A stretch of 64,000 nucleotides of DNA. Origin: Dictyostelium discoideum (Eukaryota). A program made the translations under genes and the position numbers. This document shows positions 6,001 to 51,543 of this stretch, piece after piece. The stretch's first letter is position 1. Every line of letters starts with the position of its first letter. Where the stretch lies: positions 2,048,001-2,112,000 of the forward strand of contig CM000150.2 in the NCBI GenBank assembly GCA_000004695.1, in the 5' to 3' direction. Below the pieces are notes generated by a model, which worked only from the letters and a program-made list of their open reading frames with translations, was not told the DNA's origin and did not search any database.

Positions 6001-6913
<913 letters not shown>

Positions 6914-7280
6914 TAAATAAATAAAAAAAAAAAATTAAAAAAATAATTTTAAAAAAAAAAAAAAAACAAAACAAATAATATTATTACACTAGAAAAAAGA
7001 AATTAATAAATTTTATTATAAATTAGGCAATTTCTTATTTTTTAATGCAATTTCTATTTGCAATATTTTAAGAAGTTTTTTCCTTAAAAATTGATTAATT
7101 CAATTAAAAAATAAGAAATCACCTAATTTTATTAACTTATAATAAAATAAATCAATTTTTTCCCGTGTATTATTTTAACTATTTTTTTTTTTTTTTATTT
7201 ATTTTTTTATTTTTTTATTTTTTTTTTATTTTTATTTTTTTTATTTTTATTTATTTATTTATTTATTATTAATAATTTAT

Positions 7281-8126
7281 TTAATTCTTTCTGTATAATT
7301 TCCAATCTTTTTTAGAAAGTTTCTTTAATTTTTGAGTATTATTAATAACTTGAACGACTTCAGATTTTTTAAGATTTTCTTCTTTAATTCTTTTATTTTC
7401 TCTGATTGCATTATGCATAAGTGTTTTATCGAGTTTAGTTTTCTCTTTGATTTCTCTTTCTTTATCTTTCATTCTCTTTAAGTCAATTCTTTGTTTTTGT
7501 TTATTTTCAAATGATTGTTTAAAACCTTTAGATTTAATAGCAGAGTTTAATTTTGATGATGGTGTTTTCCAAACTCTACCTGATACTGGTTTACCTCTAC
7601 TTGGATCAATTTCTTTGATTGTTCTTTTCATTTTATTTACAGTTGGTGTGTTGGTAGTAGTGGTAGTAGTAGTATCATTATTTTGTTCTTCTTTTGCTTT
7701 TGGTACATCTTCTTCTTTTGATGGTTTTGGAGTTGGTGCTGGTAAATCTTTTGTAATAATAACTTCATCGTCAACAATATTTTCAATTGGTTGCTTTTCT
7801 GTGATTACGATATCTTCTTTTTCTTCTGCTTGTTGTTCATTTTCAGTAGTTTTTGGTTGATCAATTGGTGCTGATGGTTGTGGTGTTTCAGTTGATTTTT
7901 TAGTTGCAGCTGGTTTCTTTGCTGAAACTTTTTTACTAACTTTTTTAACTGGTTTTTCAATTGGTTGTTCTACTTGAATTACATCAGTGTCCATTTCAAT
8001 ATTATCATCTTGGTTGGTTTCAGTATCTGGTTTAACTGATTTTCTTGGTTTTCTTATTTTTGTTGACTTTAAAAGAGTCATAAATTGAGTATCTTCAATA
8101 TTTGAGGTTCTTCTTGTTCCTGTCAT
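7281..8126 (-). CDS. Lysine-rich nucleolar-type protein with C-terminal Cgr1 domain (CCDC86/cyclon-like)
   Basis: 281-aa ORF rich in K/E/T. The C-terminus SGRVWKTPSS...KQRIDLKRMKDKEREIKEK...SEVVQVINNTQKLKKLSKKDWK carries the GRVWK and EVVQVI signatures of the Cgr1/CCDC86 family. Confidence 0.65.
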   Translation of the reverse strand: MTGTRRTSNIEDTQFMTLLKSTKIRKPRKSVKPDTETNQDDNIEMDTDVIQVEQPIEKPVKKVSKKVSAKKPAATKKSTETPQPSAPIDQPKTTENEQQAEEKEDIVITEKQPIENIVDDEVIITKDLPAPTPKPSKEEDVPKAKEEQNNDTTTTTTTNTPTVNKMKRTIKEIDPSRGKPVSGRVWKTPSSKLNSAIKSKGFKQSFENKQKQRIDLKRMKDKEREIKEKTKLDKTLMHNAIRENKRIKEENLKKSEVVQVINNTQKLKKLSKKDWKLYRKN

Positions 8127-8698
8127 TCTTGTTATTATTATATTGATTAATCAAAATTACTTTTTATTTATATAACTTTTAAAAAAAAAAAAAAAAAAAA
8201 AACAAAAAACGAATCGGGGGAATTGAGAAAAAATAATAAAAAAAAAAATTTAAAAAAAAATAAAAATAAAAAATCGTTTTTTTCACCCTTCGTCAAAAAA
8301 AAAAAAAATAAAATTTTATTTAATTTAATTTTATTTAAATTTTTTTTTTTTTTATGATTTTTATTTTTTTTTTTAAAATTAATTTTTTTTTTTTTTTTCA
8401 ATATAAAAAATTGAACAAACAAGGAATTCCTTTATTTGTTTCATTTTTTTTTTTTCTATGTATATAAAATTTAATTTCTTTTTCTATGTTACAATTTATA
8501 CTTAGAATAATTTAAACAATAAAACAAACTCGAACTAGTCAATACATGATTTATTAATTTTTTTTTTTTTAAAAAAGAAAATTAAAAAAAAAAAAAAAAA
8601 AATAGAAACAAACCAAAAGAACAATTCAAAATAATAAAATAAAAATAAAATAAAATAAATAAATAACAATATATATACCTTTTTTTATTATAGTCACA
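8127..8698. promoter_or_regulatory. Putative bidirectional promoter region between divergent genes
   Basis: AT-rich 570-bp spacer with long A and T homopolymers between the start of the minus-strand gene (8126) and the plus-strand gene (8699). Inferred from gene arrangement only. Confidence 0.3.
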
Positions 8699-9377: not shown

Positions 9378-11794
9378 GCAATAATAAAAATAGTAATACC
9401 AAAAAAAGAAGCCTCTCAAATCCAACATCACCAACATTATCACCTTCTCCCACTTCTAATAATATTAGCGAAAGTAATAATATTGTTAAAAGTAATAATA
9501 GTGCTTTAAATATTAAAAAGTCAAACAATACAACGAATAAACCAAAAAATAGTGTTCATAGTAGTAGCAGCAACAATAACAGTAATAATAAAAACATAAA
9601 TAGTAGAAATTTATTAAATCATATCAATAGTGGTAATTATTCTACAGTACCAACAAACAATAATGGTGTTGTTAGTTTAACATTCGATAGCAATCCAAAT
9701 AGTAGTTATAGTATCAATAGTAGTAATTATGATGACGATGATGAACAATATTATAATGAAGTATTGGAGTTGAATATTAATAAAGTTAATAGCAACAATA
9801 GCAACAATAACAACAATAATAATAATAGTAATAATAATAGTAAAAATAAAAATACTAGCAACGGTAGTAACATCAATAACAGTGGCAACACCAAAATGGT
9901 AAAGAAAACAAGAAATACTATAAGTGGTAGTAAACATAATAGAACCAATAGTACAGCATCAATAGAAAATACAACTACAGATGAAGACTTTGGTGACTTT
10001 GAGGATGATTTAGATGAAAACTTTATCGAGGGTTCTGAGGAAGAAGAGGAGGAAGAGGATGATGATGACGATGAAGAAGAGGAAGAGGAAGAAGATGTAA
10101 CCAATGTATCAGATTCAAATGAAGAGGATCTTGGTAATTTCGAAGGTTTAGATGAAGAAAATGGTTTACTTGAGGGTAATTTCTCAAATGAGGAATTACC
10201 AAACAATACCAACGAAGAAGATGAAGAAGAAGAAGAAGATAACTTTAGTAATAAAAATAATCCTTTCCAATTCTCATTTAACAACAATAATAGTGGTAGT
10301 AATAACAGCAATAGTAATGCATTCCAAAAAACCTATAGCTTATTTGGTCAACAATCATTCTTTAATAATATTATAAATCCAGTTTCAGAATTAAATACAA
10401 ATTCATTCCTCAAACCACTTAATAATAATACTAATTTTGGTTCACCTTCAAAAGCACAAAAGAAACAACAACAACAACAACAACAACAACAGCAACAACA
10501 ACAGTTTAGTAATAACAATAACCAAACTATGCAATCCCCAATGTTTAATACTCCATTCGTTAACAGTAGTAATTTATTTAATGGTTATGATAATAATAAT
10601 AATAATAATAGTAATAATAACTTCATAAATAAATTCCCTTATGGCCAACCATTACAACAACCGCAACAATTTAATAACTTTGGATTTATTCCGAATTTAA
10701 ATGGTACACCAACTATAAATGAATTCTTAATTCAACACCAATTTTTAGGTTTATCAAATGAAAATCGACAATTTGTTATGACTTTCACAAGTTATGGCTT
10801 CTCGATGGAGCAATGTTTACATGCACTTTATAATAGTAATAATGATAGAAATATTGCTTCAAAATGGTTAATAGAATTAAAATCATTTCTTATTAATTGG
10901 CAATCACTCTCAAATAATAATAACAATAATAATAACAATAATAATAACAATATGAATATGAACATGAACATGGGTTTACCACAGCAATCTTTACAAAATA
11001 ATAATACTATCAACAATAACAACAATATCCCAAATGCTTTCTTTGATTTCCATAATAACAATAATAATAATAATAACAATAACAACATTACAAGTAATAC
11101 TTTTAACAATAACAATAATAGTAATAATAACAATAATAATAATAATGGATCACCATCAAATCAAGACTTTTTTAATCTTACAACTAGTAATAGTGGAAAA
11201 TCTATTTCAAATTCTTCATCACCAACATCATCTTCAACACCCCAACATCCATTTAGTACTGGAGTAAGAAATTCAATCTCTTCAAATAATCAAAAACAAA
11301 CAAAAGAATCAATGTCCTCAACCTCATCAAACTCATCGGCATCTAGTATTGATAAAAAACTATTATCACCATTACAAAAAACTCAAAAATTAATGAATAT
11401 CGATCAACAGCAACAATCATCACCACCATCCCTACAAGCAACACAAACAACACAACCAACAAAAGATTTAGATGAGGCTAATAGATATTATGAACTTGGT
11501 GTTTACTATCTAAAACAACATGATTATGAAAAAGCATTAACTCATTTCGACAAATCCTATGAAATTAATCCAACTAGTCAAGCTATGAATAAAATATTTG
11601 AATTAACAAATAAAATGTTTAAAAGTAAAAATAATAGCAACAATAACAATAGTAATAATAACAACAATAATACTAGTAGTAGTAGTACTAATAATAGTAA
11701 TAGTACTGAAAATCAAAATACCACAAGTTCTAATAACTCAAAACCTGATCCATTACCAAAAACTGATAAAAAATCAGGGGACTCAAATTTATTA

Positions 11795-16609: not shown

Positions 16610-16683
16610 ATATTCAGAGCGGGAATCGAACCCACGACCTAATCCGTGTTAAGGATTCGTGATAACCGACTACACCATCCGAA
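16610..16683 (-). tRNA. tRNA-Val (anticodon AAC)
   Basis: Reverse complement gives GTTCGGATGGTGTAGTCGGTTATCACG-AATCC-TTAACAC-GGATT-AGGTC-GTGGG-TTCGATT-CCCGC-TCTGAAT-A. The 7-nt anticodon loop TTAACAC reads AAC. T-loop is GGTTCGATTCC. A T5 pol III terminator follows on the transcribed strand (plus 16601-16605). The sequence is identical to the copy at 51470..51543. Confidence 0.8.
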
Positions 16684-17537
16684 CTAATCGTTATTTTTTA
16701 AAATCTGGACACGTGTGGTCTTCCAATAACCTCGATCTGGCATTAAACGCAAACCTTATAGAATCCTCTTTGAAGCGATCTGAAAAAAGACACAAATTTA
16801 AAAATGATAACACAACCATACTTATCAACAAAAAGCAAATAATAAACAAACTTATAAAAACTCAAGAAGCTTCATATGACAAAACAAATCGAACATTAAC
16901 AAACTAATCAGACTAAGAACCAAGAAGATGAAAAGAAACTAACACAAACAATCTCAAGAGCACTCCAATATTTCAGCAAACAATGGAACTCCCACCCACT
17001 TATACCAATTCATCAATACCACAAACACACTTTTTGATAAAAAAAAATAAAAATAAAAAATAATAATAATAAAAATAACATCAATAATAAAAAAAAAAAA
17101 AACTAAACTAAACTCACCCCCTCTTTTAGAGGTCCTGTAAAAATATTACAAATAAAATGAGATTTAGCATCTTTAGGAAAAGCAACTAATAATTGCATCC
17201 AATTCAAAAAGTTTTTTTTTAATAATTAAACTAGAATAAGTTTTTGGTAAATTTATTTTAGTGAATTTTTGGTAAATCAAAAATAAAATTTTTTTTAATT
17301 TTACAATTTGAATCATCTAATACTTTAAATTTCTATTTTTTTGATAAAATAATATAAACTGGAAATTTCACATCAATATGGTTTAAAATTGGGGTAAATA
17401 TAAAATAAAATAATAAACTTACATTTTCAAATATTTTTTGAGCTTCATCATTTTTAAATTCAATTACATTATAACACCAAATGATTAAAGAATTTGTATT
17501 AAAATATAAAATATATTTTAAAAATAAAAAATATTAT

Positions 17538-25264: not shown

Positions 25265-25338
25265 TGATCCGACCGAGGATCGAACTCGAGACCTGTTGCG
25301 TGTAAAGCAACCGTGATAACCGACTACACCATCCGACC
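25265..25338 (-). tRNA. tRNA-Val (anticodon TAC)
   Basis: Reverse complement gives GGTCGGATGGTGTAGTCGGTTATCACG-GTTGC-TTTACAC-GCAAC-AGGTC-TCGAG-TTCGATC-CTCGG-TCGGATC-A. Anticodon loop TTTACAC reads TAC. A T8 terminator follows on the transcribed strand (plus A-run 25252..25259). One G-G mismatch in my acceptor-stem pairing, so exact ends are +/-1. Confidence 0.75.
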
Positions 25339-32757: not shown

Positions 32758-33408
32758 ATGATTAAAAATTCAAATATTAATTCAAATAGTAGATTAGATG
32801 ATCCAATTTTACAAGAAATTGAATTAAATAAAGTAGAGATTGGAAAGCATGCATCTTGGTCCGTTTCATCTGCAAAACCAGGATCAGGTGTTGAACAATT
32901 ACGTGATAATAATTTAGATACATTTTGGCAGTATGTTTTAAACAAAAAAAAAAAAAAAAAAAATAATAAATTAATAAATTTTTCTGACAATAATTATTAT
33001 TAATTTTTTTTATTTTTATTTTTTTTTATTTTTATTTTTATTTTTTTTAAAAAAAAAAATAAAAATAAAAATAAAAAAAAATAATAAATAATAAATTTTT
33101 CTGACAATAATTATTATTAATTTTTTTTATTTTTATTTTTTTTTATTTTTATTTTTATTTTTTTTAAAAAAAAAAATGACAGATCAGATGCACAGCAACC
33201 TCATCATATTACAATTCAATTCCCAAAGAAATGTTATATTGAAAACTTATTAATTCATTGTGATTATAAATTGGATGAAAGTTATACACCTTGTAAAATA
33301 TCAATAAAAGCTGGTACAATATTACACGACCTTCAAGAAATTATATTAACAGAATTAGAAGAACCATCTGGTTGGATCAATATTCCATTAAGTTTTAATA
33401 ATAAGTAG
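32758..33408 (+). CDS. anapc10: Anaphase-promoting complex subunit 10 (APC10/DOC1). Exons 32758..32930, 33183..33408
   Basis: Exon 1 ends ...[11 protein letters not shown] at a GTATGT donor. Exon 2 is [69 protein letters not shown], a canonical DOC domain. The 252-bp intron carries a tandem duplication. Confidence 0.85.
32961..33178. repeat. Tandem duplication (about 115-bp period, 2 copies) inside the APC10 intron
   Basis: The unit ataaatttttctgacaataattattattaattttttttatttttatttttttttatttttatttttattttttttaaaaaaaaaa occurs twice head to tail, separated by an (ataaaa)n spacer. Confidence 0.7.
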
Positions 33409-39967: not shown

Positions 39968-40687
39968 ATGTCAAAAGTTAAAAAAATAAAAACAGATAAT
40001 AATAATAAAATATTTCAAGATATTATTGATTTTGAAATTTTAAAATCTATAATCAATTATTTATTAATCAGCAAAAAAAATAAAAATAAAAATAATAATT
40101 AATAAATTTTATTTTAATAGAAATGAAATATTAAATTATATATTAGTTTCAAAAAAGTGGTATAATTTTATATCGTTAACAATATCAAAAAATATTATTA
40201 ATAAATTATTTGAATATTGGTTAGATATTAATCATAATGATTATAACTCATTTATTGAAAATTTTAATAATAAAAATCAATATGATAAAAATAATTTATT
40301 TTTTGAAAGTGGTAAACAAAATAAAATTAGGTTTAATAAAGAATTTTCAATTATAAAAATCAAAGAATCTGTAACAACTGGTGGTCGGTATCATCAGTAT
40401 TAATTTTTCCTAATGATTTCTTTATTGTGTTGGTTATTGCTGCTGAAGTTATTGGTGTTGTAATGTTGGGTGATGATGGTGGTGTCGTATGATTATTCAA
40501 TTGTTGTTGAGATTGTTGATTTATTAATTGAATGTGTTGTTGAAGAAGCTGATTTTGTTTATCTATTTGTTAACCTACAATTTTTAAATTTATATTATTA
40601 TTTTATATGGTGATTTTGTGTGTGGCATTTTTAATATCTGGTATCTAATATCTGTTATGAAAACTTTTGTGAAATTCAAATTAATTT

Positions 40688-40721
<34 letters not shown>

Positions 40722-42400
40722 AAAATTAAATTTAATTTAAAATTAATTAAATTTAATTACAACGGGAGAAAACCCCTTTAAACAAAACAATAAAATAAAT
40801 TATTATTATTTTCTGAATTGTATGTGTCATAACAAATTGTTGAAACAAAACTATATTCTAAATTATTATTATTTATTTTTGAATTATTGTTTAGTTGTGT
40901 TTAGTGAGTTTATTATATAAAATGAAACAATTTATTAAAATGAATTAAGTTAGTAATAATTAATATTGAATTATCAATTCAATATTAATAGTTATTTTTA
41001 AATGTTCTGTTTAGAACATTTCATAAAATTAAATAAATATTAGTATTAACAAGATATTTTTTTGAGATCTTGTTACAGAATCAATAATCAATGATTATTT
41101 TAAATTCAATTTGTTTTTATATATGATTACAATTGATGATTTTAAAGAAATTAAAAATAAATTTGAAATTAATCAATTAGTTTATAATAGAATTGAAGTT
41201 AATTTTGAAAATTATTGTGGTTTAAATGATGATTATACTATGTTCAAAATAAGTGAATATGTATCAAATGAAAATTCAGAAACCATATCAAATTTATTTA
41301 AAATATTAGAATTAAATTCTGATTTTTGGTTGAATGATGGTTATATTCCAAATTTTGAAGATGAAGGTAATAAGAAATGCACTGAAATATATTTTAATAA
41401 TTTATTAATTGGTGGTTATAATAAAAATGTAGGTAAAGATGGAGAAACAGTAAAGGTATTCAAAATTTTCAAAGGTAAAAATTTAATTTATGATGGACCT
41501 AGTGCAATTTTTGATTTTTTAACAAGTGTCAACTATTCAGCTTATTTGACCCAGATCGATTAAAGTAAAAAAAGAAAATAAATGTGAAGATTTTGTTGAA
41601 GCACGTCATTGAATCAAAGTTCATCAATTTGAAAATTTACATTCAATTACAATATGGCTGCTGAAATTAATACGGTAATTTTGGCAGACCTAAGTCCCAT
41701 GCCAAAATTAATATGGCTGCTGAAATTAATATGGTAATTTTGGCATGGGACAAATAACAACTAACTATTTTCAAATATTATCAAACATATCAAAACAAAT
41801 GGGATCTACTAGTTTCTATGATGATAACTCCGAATTTAATCAAATGGTTAATTCATTCATTACAAGAAAATCTTTAAAGAATTAAAAAATAACATTGATA
41901 ATTCCAATAGATTATCCAATCGATAATGAAGGTTGTGTTAATTATGATGATGGAAGTGATCATGAAATGTGTGCTAATGAAATAAATAAAACTATAGAAT
42001 ACTATTCTAATTGTTTTAAACCATTATTTTCAGAATTAAATACATCAATTGAAAGAATTGAATTTGATTGTATGGATCGATACATTTTCAAATTTATTAA
42101 ATAATAAATCAATTAAATATTATCTTTATATGGTAATAGTGATTTCATTGTTTACTCATTAGAACCAATTGGTGGTGGTGATGGTGATGGTGATGGTGGA
42201 CACAAAAACAACTACAAGAACAAGAACAAGAACAACAACAAAAATCAGATAACATAAATTTAAAAGAAAATAAAATTATAATTCTACATGATATTTATTT
42301 TCAAGAATTAAATATTATTAAAAATCCATTTTTCACAACAGTAATAAAGAAAATGCATACAGCTTGTTATTATGGATAGAAAAAATAAAAATAAAAACAA
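39968..42400 (+). pseudogene. Decayed tandem paralogue of the downstream family gene (43188..45082)
   Basis: Segment-by-segment nucleotide similarity to the intact gene (MSKVKKIKTDNNNKIFQDIIDFEILKSIINYLLIS..., ...IKIKES, IINDYFKFNLFL..ITIDDFKEIKNKFE..NQL.YNRI, ...EARH.IKVNQFENLHSITI, C-terminal ...NPFFTTVIK). It contains premature stops, deletions, a 710-bp insertion and a 108-bp foldback insertion. Confidence 0.6.
40369..41078. mobile_element. 710-bp insertion with 9-bp terminal inverted repeats (CTGTAACAA...TTGTTACAG) and AAT target-site duplication; MITE-like non-autonomous DNA transposon candidate
   Basis: The empty site is visible in the intact paralogue (43600-43640: ...aaagaatcaataatc...). 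In the pseudogene the same site reads ...aaagaat[ctgtaacaactgg...gagatcttgttacag]aatcaataatc... The insert has no long ORF. Confidence 0.45.
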
Positions 42401-43098: not shown

Positions 43099-43187
43099 AT
43101 AATTTTAGAAGAAAAAAAAATATCTTGGTCAGTTTTTTTTTTTTTTTTTTATTGGGATGAAAAAAAAAAATTTTAAAAAAATAATAA

Positions 43188-45082
43188 TGTCAACAAATAA
43201 AAAAATTAAAACAGATAATAAAAATAAAATATTTCAAGATATTATTGATTTTGAAATTTTAAAATCTATAATCAATTATTTATTAATCAGCAACAAAAAT
43301 AAAAATAATAATAAAAATAGCAATACCTGTAATCAATATAAAATTAATAAATTTTATTTTAATAGAAATGAAATATTAAATTATATATTAGTTTCAAAAA
43401 AGTGGTATAATTTTATATCATTAACAATATCAAATAATATTATTAATAATAAATTATTTGAACATTGGTTAATTAATAATAATATAAATAATTCATTTAT
43501 TGAAAATTATAATAATCAAAATCAATATGATAAAAATAATTTAATTTTTGATAGTGATAAAAAAAATAAAATTAATTTTAATAAAGAGTTTTCAATTATA
43601 AAAATCAAAGAATCAATAATCAATGATTATTTTAAATTCAATTTATTTTTACATAAGATTACAATTGATGATTTTAAAGAAATTAAAAATAAATTTGAAA
43701 ATAATCAATTACTTTATAATAGAATTGTAGTTAATATTTGTATTATTGAATTCACACCATATAATAGTGAATTATATGAATATGTATCAAATGAAAATTC
43801 AGAAACCATATCAAATTTATTTAAAATATTAGAATTAAATTGTGATAATTCGTTGGAATATGGTTATATTCCAGTTTCTGAAGAGGGAGATAAACTTAAT
43901 AACAAATACAATGGGTTATATTTAAATAATTTATCAATTGATGGTTTTGATACATATGTAGATGAAGATGAAGATACATTAAAGATTTTTAATATTTTAA
44001 AAGGTAAAAATATAATTTATGGAGTATATGATACTAAAAGTAATGAAAGTCCAACACATATCAATTATTCAGCATTATTTGATCCAGATAATTCAGGTCA
44101 ACAAGTTGAATCAATTAAAGTACAATGTTGTACTGATTATGAAGAGGCTGTTGAAGCACGTCATTTAATCAAAGTTAATCAATTTGAAAATTTACATTCA
44201 ATTACAATACCAATTAATTCATTTCAAATATTATCAAACTTATCTGAAGAAATGGAATTTCATACATTATACCGAAATAGGGCAGAATTAGGTAATTCAG
44301 GAAATATGAAATCAGAATTAAATCAAATGATCAATTCATTCATTACAAGTAAATCTTTAAAGAATTTAAATATCAAATCGGAAAATTCAATTGAACACTT
44401 TCATCCAAATCATTATTATGATGGTAATAGTGATCATGAAATTTTTGTTAATAAAATAAATGAAACTATAGAATCATATTCAAATTCATTTAAACCATTA
44501 TTTTCAGAATTAAATACATCAATTGAAAGAATTGAATTTGATTGTATGGGTTTATTAAATATCGATACATTTTCAAATTTATTAAATAATAAATCAATTA
44601 AATATTTATCTTTATATGGTAATAGTGATTTCATTGTTTACTCATCAAAACCAACTGGTGATAATGGTGGTAGTAAATTACATGAAGAAACTATTTCAAT
44701 TAATCAATATTTATTTGAAAATATATTTACATCACCATTAACACCAATTAGACATTATAAAATTAATATCAAAAATTCAAAACAAATAAAATCAATATTT
44801 AATTTAATATTAAATAATATTTTTAAATTACAATTATATTCATTAATATTTGAATTTAATGAAAACGAATTAATTTGTGAATTTGTTAAAGAATTTAAAA
44901 ATTTAATAAATAATATTTCAATACAACTACAACAAGAACAACAAGAACACCAAAAATCAAAAAACATAAATTTAAAAGAAATTAAAATTAAAATTAATAA
45001 CGATAATGAATATTCTCAAGAATTAAATAGTATTAATAATCCATATTTCACAACAGTAATAAAGTATATTTCACAAGAGTAA
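43188..45082 (+). CDS. Dictyostelid family protein of unknown function (N/K/I-rich, about 630 aa)
   Basis: Long single ORF; the track starts it at 43157 (MKKKNFKKIIMSTNKK...), and the ATG at 43188 (MSTNKKIK...) is the likely true start. It has a decayed tandem copy immediately upstream. No recognisable domain; low-complexity N-rich segments. Confidence 0.55.
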
Positions 45083-51012: not shown

Positions 51013-51321
51013 AATAATCTTTATATATTTATTTATTTTTTAATATTAACAAGTTTTTAATAATAATAATATTAATAATAGTAATATTAATAATAGTAAT
51101 AAGAATAATAATGATTAACAAACAATAATAATTATTTTAATTATTAATTTATTAGTTTTATATTTTAGAGTTTTCGTTCGAAACTTATAAAAACTGAAAA
51201 AATGAAAAAAATAAGTTGATTCAAGCTTTACAGCATTCATATAATATTTTAATTGTGTGTTTATTTTTTATTATGACCATCCGGATATCCGAAGTTCGGA
51301 TTTCCATTTTACAGCAAAAAG

Positions 51322-51393
51322 CTCCCTGTCCGGGAATTGAACCCGGGCCTTTCGCGTGACAGGCGAAAATCCTCACCACTAGACCAACAAGGA
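51322..51393 (-). tRNA. tRNA-Asp (anticodon GTC)
   Basis: Reverse complement gives TCCTTGTTGGTCTAGTGGTGAGGATTTTCGCCTGTCACGCGAAAGGCCCGGGTTCAATTCCCGGACAGGGAG. Anticodon loop CTGTCAC reads GTC. T5 terminator on the transcribed strand (plus 51316..51320). Confidence 0.9.
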
Positions 51394-51469
51394 TGATTTT
51401 GTGATTTCTTTTTATTTTAGCCCGGAAATAAAGGTTTTAATTACAAACTAATTCTTAAAAATTAGTTTG

Positions 51470-51543
51470 TATTCAGAGCGGGAATCGAACCCACGACCTA
51501 ATCCGTGTTAAGGATTCGTGATAACCGACTACACCATCCGAAC
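51470..51543 (-). tRNA. tRNA-Val (anticodon AAC), second copy
   Basis: Sequence identical to the tRNA at 16610..16683. T5 terminator downstream on the transcribed strand (plus 51455..51459). Confidence 0.85.

Follow-up and report, generated by a model that had tools for sequence, protein, structure and literature searches.

What kind of mobile element interrupts a decaying gene copy on Dictyostelium discoideum contig CM000150.2, and where exactly does that element begin and end? The stretch that we analyzed (64,000 nucleotides, positions 2,048,001 to 2,112,000 of the forward strand in assembly GCA_000004695.1; hereafter the window) contains two tandem paralogues, one intact and one decayed, and the decayed copy is interrupted by a segment of some 700 bp that is missing from its intact neighbor. 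In a first-pass annotation this segment had been described as a cut-and-paste DNA transposon of 710 bp, with 9-bp terminal inverted repeats (TIRs) and a 3-bp target-site duplication (TSD) of AAT. By comparing it with other copies of the same family we find that the element has 8-bp TIRs and a 5-bp TSD, and that it is an internally deleted member of a family whose full-length copies contain a conserved open reading frame (ORF) and a conserved hairpin.

A precise insertion in a decaying gene copy

The window is A/T-rich (its GC content is 11–37% per kb), and we compared flanks and insert within it using blastn with a low-complexity filter. The left flank of the insert matches positions 43172–43613 of the intact paralogue at 88%, the right flank matches the paralogue from 43611 onward at 79–85%, and at the insertion point the paralogue reads ATCAAAGAATCAATAATC without interruption. 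The reconstructed empty site aligns to the paralogue across the junction at 92%. The flanks thus align to the paralogue, which has nothing between them, and the claim of a precise insertion relative to the intact gene is borne out. The same filtered comparison revealed no second copy of the insert elsewhere in the window. The 631-aa product of the paralogue is identical to KAM9941563.1 of D. discoideum and clusters with DDB_G0269084 of strain AX4; when it is aligned to the host pseudogene by tblastn, the alignment passes through frames 1, 2, 3 and 2 (46–91% amino-acid identity), indicating that the pseudogene has suffered at least three frameshifts. The insertion is a real but ordinary event in a gene copy already in decay, and the element lies antisense to its host. 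A second assembly, GCA_054883475.1, is 99.78% identical to the window over positions 33181–55117 and contains the insert, the sole difference in the 3.3 kb around it being a T-run (40690–40720) that is 5 T shorter in the second assembly.

The interval 40369–41078 opens with CTGTAACAA and closes with TTGTTACAG, and within the window the 9-mer CTGTAACAA occurs at these two insert ends only. Two parses suit the filled site: AAT-CTGTAACAA...TTGTTACAG-AAT, with a 9-bp TIR and a 3-bp TSD, or ATCAAA GAATC TGTAACAA...TTGTTACA GAATC AATAATC, with an element of 708 bp, an 8-bp TIR, a 5-bp TSD and TG...CA ends. The ambiguity arises from the target pentamer, GAATC, whose first base is G and whose last is C. 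The window locus taken alone does not decide between them, and we therefore sought further copies.

Further copies fix the ends of the element

Concatenation of the non-low-complexity pieces of six-frame ORFs from the insert led to a protein match in AX4, DDB_G0279889, whose last 38 residues are the plus-strand translation of the element (that is, antisense to the ORF of the family). Through a neighboring homologue of DDB_G0279889 we fetched a region of GCA_054883475.1 (L002) that contains a copy ~96% identical to the window insert, in two blocks. When the 67-aa remnant ORF of the window copy served as query in an exhaustive HMMER search, five representatives were returned, three of which led to further loci (L005, L006 and L007); KAM9949549.1 is 97% identical to this remnant. 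A further AX4 copy, on an unplaced 2.3-kb contig, is implied by DDB_G0294302. A protein look-up with the internal 47-aa ORF of the insert found no record, and neither a 22-mer nor a conserved 20-mer had a match in metagenome scans. The family thus occupies a minimum of five loci, and the insert is not single-copy; four of the copies are complete, and full-length members measure 1108–1184 bp, or ~1.16 kb.

These copies settle the structure of the ends. Homology between copies starts exactly at TGTAACAA and stops exactly at T(T/A)GTTACA. The bases immediately outside TGT and ACA are C/G in the window and T/A, C/T and A/A in the other complete copies; because this base differs among copies, it is part of the target rather than of the element. 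Each complete copy is flanked by a perfect 5-bp repeat of its own (GAATC in the window, AAACT in L002, TATTC in L005 and ATTTA in L006). For two of the insertions the empty site is established, in the window through the paralogue and in L005 through DIRS-1: the L005 copy is nested in one DIRS-1 copy, and four other DIRS-1 copies of the locus match its reconstructed empty site at 95–97%, in a gapless alignment through the junction. Beyond 8 bp the two ends resemble each other no better than shuffled sequence does (first 45 bp of both ends, every copy). The element in the window is therefore the 708 bp from 40370 to 41077, with an 8-bp TIR and a 5-bp TSD, and the apparent ninth base of the repeat and the apparent "AAT" duplication arise by chance from the target sequence at this site.

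These findings bear directly on two accounts of the segment. The earlier parse would make it a MITE-like element (miniature inverted-repeat transposable element) of the PIF/Harbinger-Tourist or CACTA type, bounded by the 9-bp TIR CTGTAACAA and a 3-bp AAT. Such elements resemble this family in their short TIRs and in producing non-autonomous copies without transposase, and the parse can be drawn at the window site, where the target pentamer happens to start with G and end with C. Elsewhere, however, TGT is preceded by T, C or A and ACA is followed by A, T or A, and the flanking repeats are 5 bp long. The copies do share their termini, but in all four complete copies the TSD is 5 bp rather than 3 bp, and the other copies refute the earlier parse. 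The family further differs from Tourist/PIF-Harbinger and CACTA elements in its TG...CA ends and in not being miniature, having an ORF within a 1.16-kb unit, and we consider an assignment of this kind very improbable. Still more improbable, to the point of being negligible, is that there was no insertion at all, and that the difference between the paralogues reflects either a deletion in the intact gene or a GT...AG intron of the interrupted one. The insert ends do contain GT...AG; the same ends, however, are found in an FNIP-family gene, in a DIRS-1 copy and at other loci, each time with a 5-bp duplication of their own, and the DIRS-1 copies supply independent empty sites. On the strength of this recurrence in unrelated loci we rejected both the intron and the deletion.

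The window copy: dead and internally deleted

Compared with L002, the window copy lacks 478 internal bp (17272–17749 of L002), in place of which it has 12 bp of filler, TGTTAACCTACA. Lost with this segment are the start codon of the ORF and the conserved hairpin/TATA region, whereas both termini are kept. The earlier statement that there is no ORF inside needs qualification, since an open frame of 66 codons lies on the minus strand (40372–40569), although it has no ATG. Likewise the description of the segment as non-autonomous and MITE-like is right in its first half only. MITEs are miniature families, typically under about 600–800 bp, without coding capacity; we rejected this classification because intact copies of the present family span 1108–1184 bp and have a conserved ORF of 108–111 codons, together with the hairpin. 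The window copy is a dead internal-deletion derivative and not a MITE.

A stop-less ORF and a conserved hairpin

The sense strand of the family, defined by its ORF, is the minus strand of the window. In this orientation the element begins with TGTAACAAGATC, which is followed by ~500 bp of A/T-rich sequence that includes an A-run of about 30. This stretch gives way to a region of ~140 nt, richer in G+C and highly conserved, around the TATA box TATAAAAG. The predicted fold of this region, at -48.5 kcal/mol (z = -6.8), is a long imperfect hairpin, and among copies that are 80% identical the hairpin is the best-conserved non-coding part. Neither the element nor the hairpin has a match in Rfam, and ARAGORN detects no tRNA-like part in the element.

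An ATG ~170 nt beyond the hairpin region opens the ORF of the family (MSTNNN...ITNTIKKSLGK-NTDDTDHQLLQ; 108 codons in L002 and 111 in L007). The terminal repeat itself supplies the last codons of this ORF, and with no stop codon within the element the frame reads out through the end. The ORF survives intact in L002 and L007, but a frameshift disrupts it in L005 and a truncation in L006. Its changes between diverged copies fall mainly at third positions, with Nei-Gojobori dN/dS values of 0.14–0.39, which together indicate that selection has acted on the protein during the ~20% divergence of the family. Neither Pfam nor PDB contains a match to the ORF, and it has no DDE domain. The frame of DDB_G0294302 extends 275 residues past the element end; this extension has no gag or other Pfam match, and a single-sequence AlphaFold model of the protein was too poor for use (pLDDT, the predicted local distance difference test score, was 32). 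Because the ORF has no stop, gene callers fuse it to flanking sequence and so produce different 'hypothetical proteins' in each assembly. Gene calls fused in this manner are found at 16971–17402 (minus strand) of L002, at 10001–10566 (plus strand) of L007 and in DDB_G0294302; these calls, and the 38-residue tail of DDB_G0279889, look like annotation artefacts in public proteomes.

How the family may be mobilized

TG...CA ends combined with a 5-bp staggered cut reflect the chemistry of retroviral-type DDE integrases. The ends and the TSD therefore point to an integrase-type enzyme, of the kind found in Tdd-4/Tdd-5 or in long terminal repeat (LTR) retrotransposons, and not to a PIF/CACTA-type transposon with a 3-bp TSD; and the family, having no DDE enzyme of its own, must depend on one supplied in trans. 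Resident sources of such enzymes in D. discoideum are of two kinds, the Ty3/gypsy elements Skipper and DGLT-A and the DNA transposons Tdd-4/Tdd-5, the latter with 5-bp TSDs and TGTNR termini (PMC2836005). We envisage that the 3' ends of the element would be joined to a target cut with a 5-bp stagger by an integrase-type enzyme acting in trans, that this enzyme would most likely be the resident Tdd-4/Tdd-5 (Ginger2/TDD) transposase, and that the element would move as DNA. The family would then be a small non-autonomous DNA element, possibly of the published 'thug' class. Such a DNA element, akin to Tdd or thug, is the reading that we favor, as probable though far from secure, because the complete copies are solitary, have no adjoining reverse transcriptase (RT) or integrase gene, and are longer than the tabulated LTRs of dictyostelids. 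With Tdd-4/Tdd-5 the family shares the host genome, the 5-bp TSD and the TGTNR ends (here TGTAA) that characterize Ginger2/TDD elements. By their description (PMC2836005), Tdd-4/Tdd-5 are set apart by a length of 3.8 kb, TIRs of 145–297 bp and an integrase-like transposase, as against 1.16 kb, 8-bp TIRs and no DDE domain here.

Several observations tell against such a DNA element. A TIR of only 8 bp, set beside the 45–297 bp of Tdd-4/Tdd-5 and Ginger2, is the pattern of an LTR rather than of Tdd. Purifying selection on the ORF and its read-out through the element end are not readily accounted for in a passively mobilized element and make better sense if the unit is an LTR containing the gag start. 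Moreover, we saw no presence/absence polymorphism or excision footprint, the site being filled in GCA_054883475.1, the sole other assembly recovered for this locus. The main alternative, to which we assign a distinctly lower probability, is that the 1.16-kb unit is the LTR of a retrotransposon, perhaps a gag-only, non-autonomous one, with gag starting inside the LTR, and that the copies are solo LTRs left by LTR–LTR recombination with the original 5-bp duplication kept. In yeast Ty1, the gag ORF starts inside the LTR. TG...CA ends, an 8-bp inverted repeat and a 5-bp TSD constitute the classic LTR signature; the family has the ends, the short inverted repeat and a TSD within the 4–6 bp of Ty3/gypsy solo LTRs (DGLT-A 'H3R', Skipper, yeast Ty3 sigma) and, like them, is found as solitary copies. 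The end structure suits a Tdd-type DNA transposon and a solo LTR equally. The first-pass reading stands as to a mobile-element insertion, and a cut-and-paste mode is one possibility. A TATA box also lies upstream of the selected ATG-initiated ORF, which has no stop before the element end, and a solo LTR would account better than a DNA element for both of these features and for so short an inverted repeat. The 275 residues by which the frame of DDB_G0294302 continues past the element end are consistent with an LTR as well, and the junction (...LL/H-G...) would read CA/TGG, resembling a primer-binding site, if the His codon, deduced from the protein, is CAT. This extension, which has no gag or Pfam match, may, however, belong to a chimeric gene model; other gene calls at these copies, among them P0010, are plainly chimeric. 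None of the four complete copies has a partner LTR, an internal region, a second copy of the element or an RT or integrase gene within 10 kb on either side. DGLT-A solo LTRs stand 13–33 bp upstream of tRNA genes, whereas the window copy does not adjoin a tRNA gene; the nearest lies more than 10 kb from the insert, which accordingly does not look tRNA-targeted. In D. discoideum the LTRs of Skipper-1, Skipper-2/DGLT-P and DGLT-A/H3R are 390, 208 and 265 bp long, respectively, and dictyostelid LTRs range from 163 to 601 bp (PMC5006619, Table 1), so that the unit is 2–7 times the length of all those tabulated. A solo LTR of any of these three D. discoideum elements was rejected on length, 1108–1184 bp against 390, 208 and 265 bp.

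If the family is a small DNA element, as we favor, it might be one that is already known. According to PMC5633606, the DNA transposons of D. discoideum comprise the Tdd, DDT and thug families, and thug-S and thug-T appear there and in PMC4894637 as 'thug' DNA transposons, with reference to Glockner et al. 2001. Thug-S is described as multi-copy, and its annotated ORF, of unknown function, appears as the 'thugS element' in PMC12405889; small RNAs are described as arising from its intron. The likeness is that of a small multi-copy D. discoideum element with an orphan ORF and a structured small-RNA part to a family with an orphan ORF and a strong hairpin; compared by description only, the two differ in that thug-S has an intron and none is evident here. 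That the family is thug(-S) is a live possibility. Weak hints against it come from two sides. In AX4, gene models that enter the element bear the plain label of hypothetical protein and are not flagged as transposable elements. The hairpin of the family has no match to the small RNAs in Table 2 of PMC4894637, a table that may not include the thug-S RNA, and miRNA_can_D3, possibly the thug-S small RNA, is absent from the family and instead matches a separate 97-bp insertion nearby. A literature search for TGTAACAA with Dictyostelium returned no paper on transposon termini. We give a minor share of probability to the family being an undescribed small integrase-type element that is neither thug, DDT nor Tdd, either a gag-only LTR-like unit or a 1.16-kb element with a stop-less selected ORF and a TATA hairpin; in the latter version, each insertion would make a different read-out fusion with host sequence.

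For the window itself little is at stake, as it holds one old transposon copy in a decaying gene copy. For classification the parse matters more: 3 bp with 9 bp would lead a curator to a PIF/CACTA-type element, whereas 5 bp with TG...CA leads to an integrase-type one (Tdd/Ginger2 or LTR). What calls for explanation is the selected stop-less ORF that runs through the terminal repeat and the stable, conserved hairpin around a TATA box. While the insertion is ordinary as an event, the family is mildly interesting, and if it is not the catalogued 'thug' it adds to a genome repeat inventory that has been treated as complete since 2001.

Table 1 Positions of the element, its parts, its host locus and its other copies (window coordinates unless a locus is named)
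Feature	Position	Strand	Remarks
Host pseudogene	39968–42349	+	Decayed tandem paralogue with the element inside; tblastn of paralogue protein
Left TSD, GAATC	40365–40369		Same pentamer after element; once in paralogue (43610–43614)
Element copy, internally deleted	40370–41077	-	708 bp; ~96% identical to L002 17077–18239 in two blocks; homology stops exactly there
Terminal repeat, TGTAACAA on plus strand	40370–40377		3' end in sense orientation (...TTGTTACA); copy alignments
ORF remnant	40372–40569	-	66 codons, no ATG, no stop inside element; stops 2 codons into flank
Deletion junction	40568–40579		12-bp filler in place of 478 bp
T31 run (A-run on sense strand)	40690–40720		In all copies
Terminal repeat, TTGTTACA on plus strand	41070–41077		5' end TGTAACAA in sense orientation; copy alignments
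Right TSD, GAATC	41078–41082		Repeat of left pentamer
Intact paralogue	43187–45082	+	DDB_G0269084-like, 631 aa; empty site GAATC at 43610–43614
Copy in L002	17077–18239		1163 bp; chromosome 3 (AX4/ACTFIT), GCA_054883475.1; TSD AAACT; DDB_G0279889 tail
Copy in L005	10674–11857		GCA_054859385.1, JBTAPF010000008.1:53369-76193; TSD TATTC; nested in one DIRS-1 copy
Copy in L006	9088–10195		Complete; TSD ATTTA
Copy in L007			D. cf. discoideum; diverged, partial, 5'-truncated
Conserved hairpin, L002	17545–17700	-	
Conserved hairpin, L005	about 11215–11360		
Conserved hairpin, L006			
Conserved hairpin, L007	9820–9925		Shortened form

Other features of the loci

Locus L005 is a DIRS-1 cluster that carries RVT_1 and Phage_integrase genes. 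In L007 a gene for a PIF/Harbinger-type transposase (DDE_Tnp_1/DDE_Tnp_4; 6891–8538, plus strand) lies 1.4 kb upstream of the partial copy, and we saw no link between it and the element. The window contains four tRNA genes, all on the minus strand (16611–16684, 25265–25338, 51321–51393 and 51469–51543), with Val-AAC represented twice and Val-TAC and Asp-GTC once each. An F-box-like N-terminus of the host protein was set aside as an impression without Pfam support.

The host pseudogene holds a second extra segment, of ~97 bp (41655–41750), that is absent from the paralogue in the alignment. It consists of two 59-bp tandem units, which are predicted to form two adjacent hairpins (-42.9 kcal/mol, z -7.3), and it has no match in Rfam. 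Near-exact copies of miRNA_can_D3-5p, with 1–2 mismatches, are located at 41653–41675 and 41712–41734, along with a degenerate 3p-like arm. This segment could represent a very small mobile unit of hairpin type, or else a locus paralogous to miRNA_can_D3.

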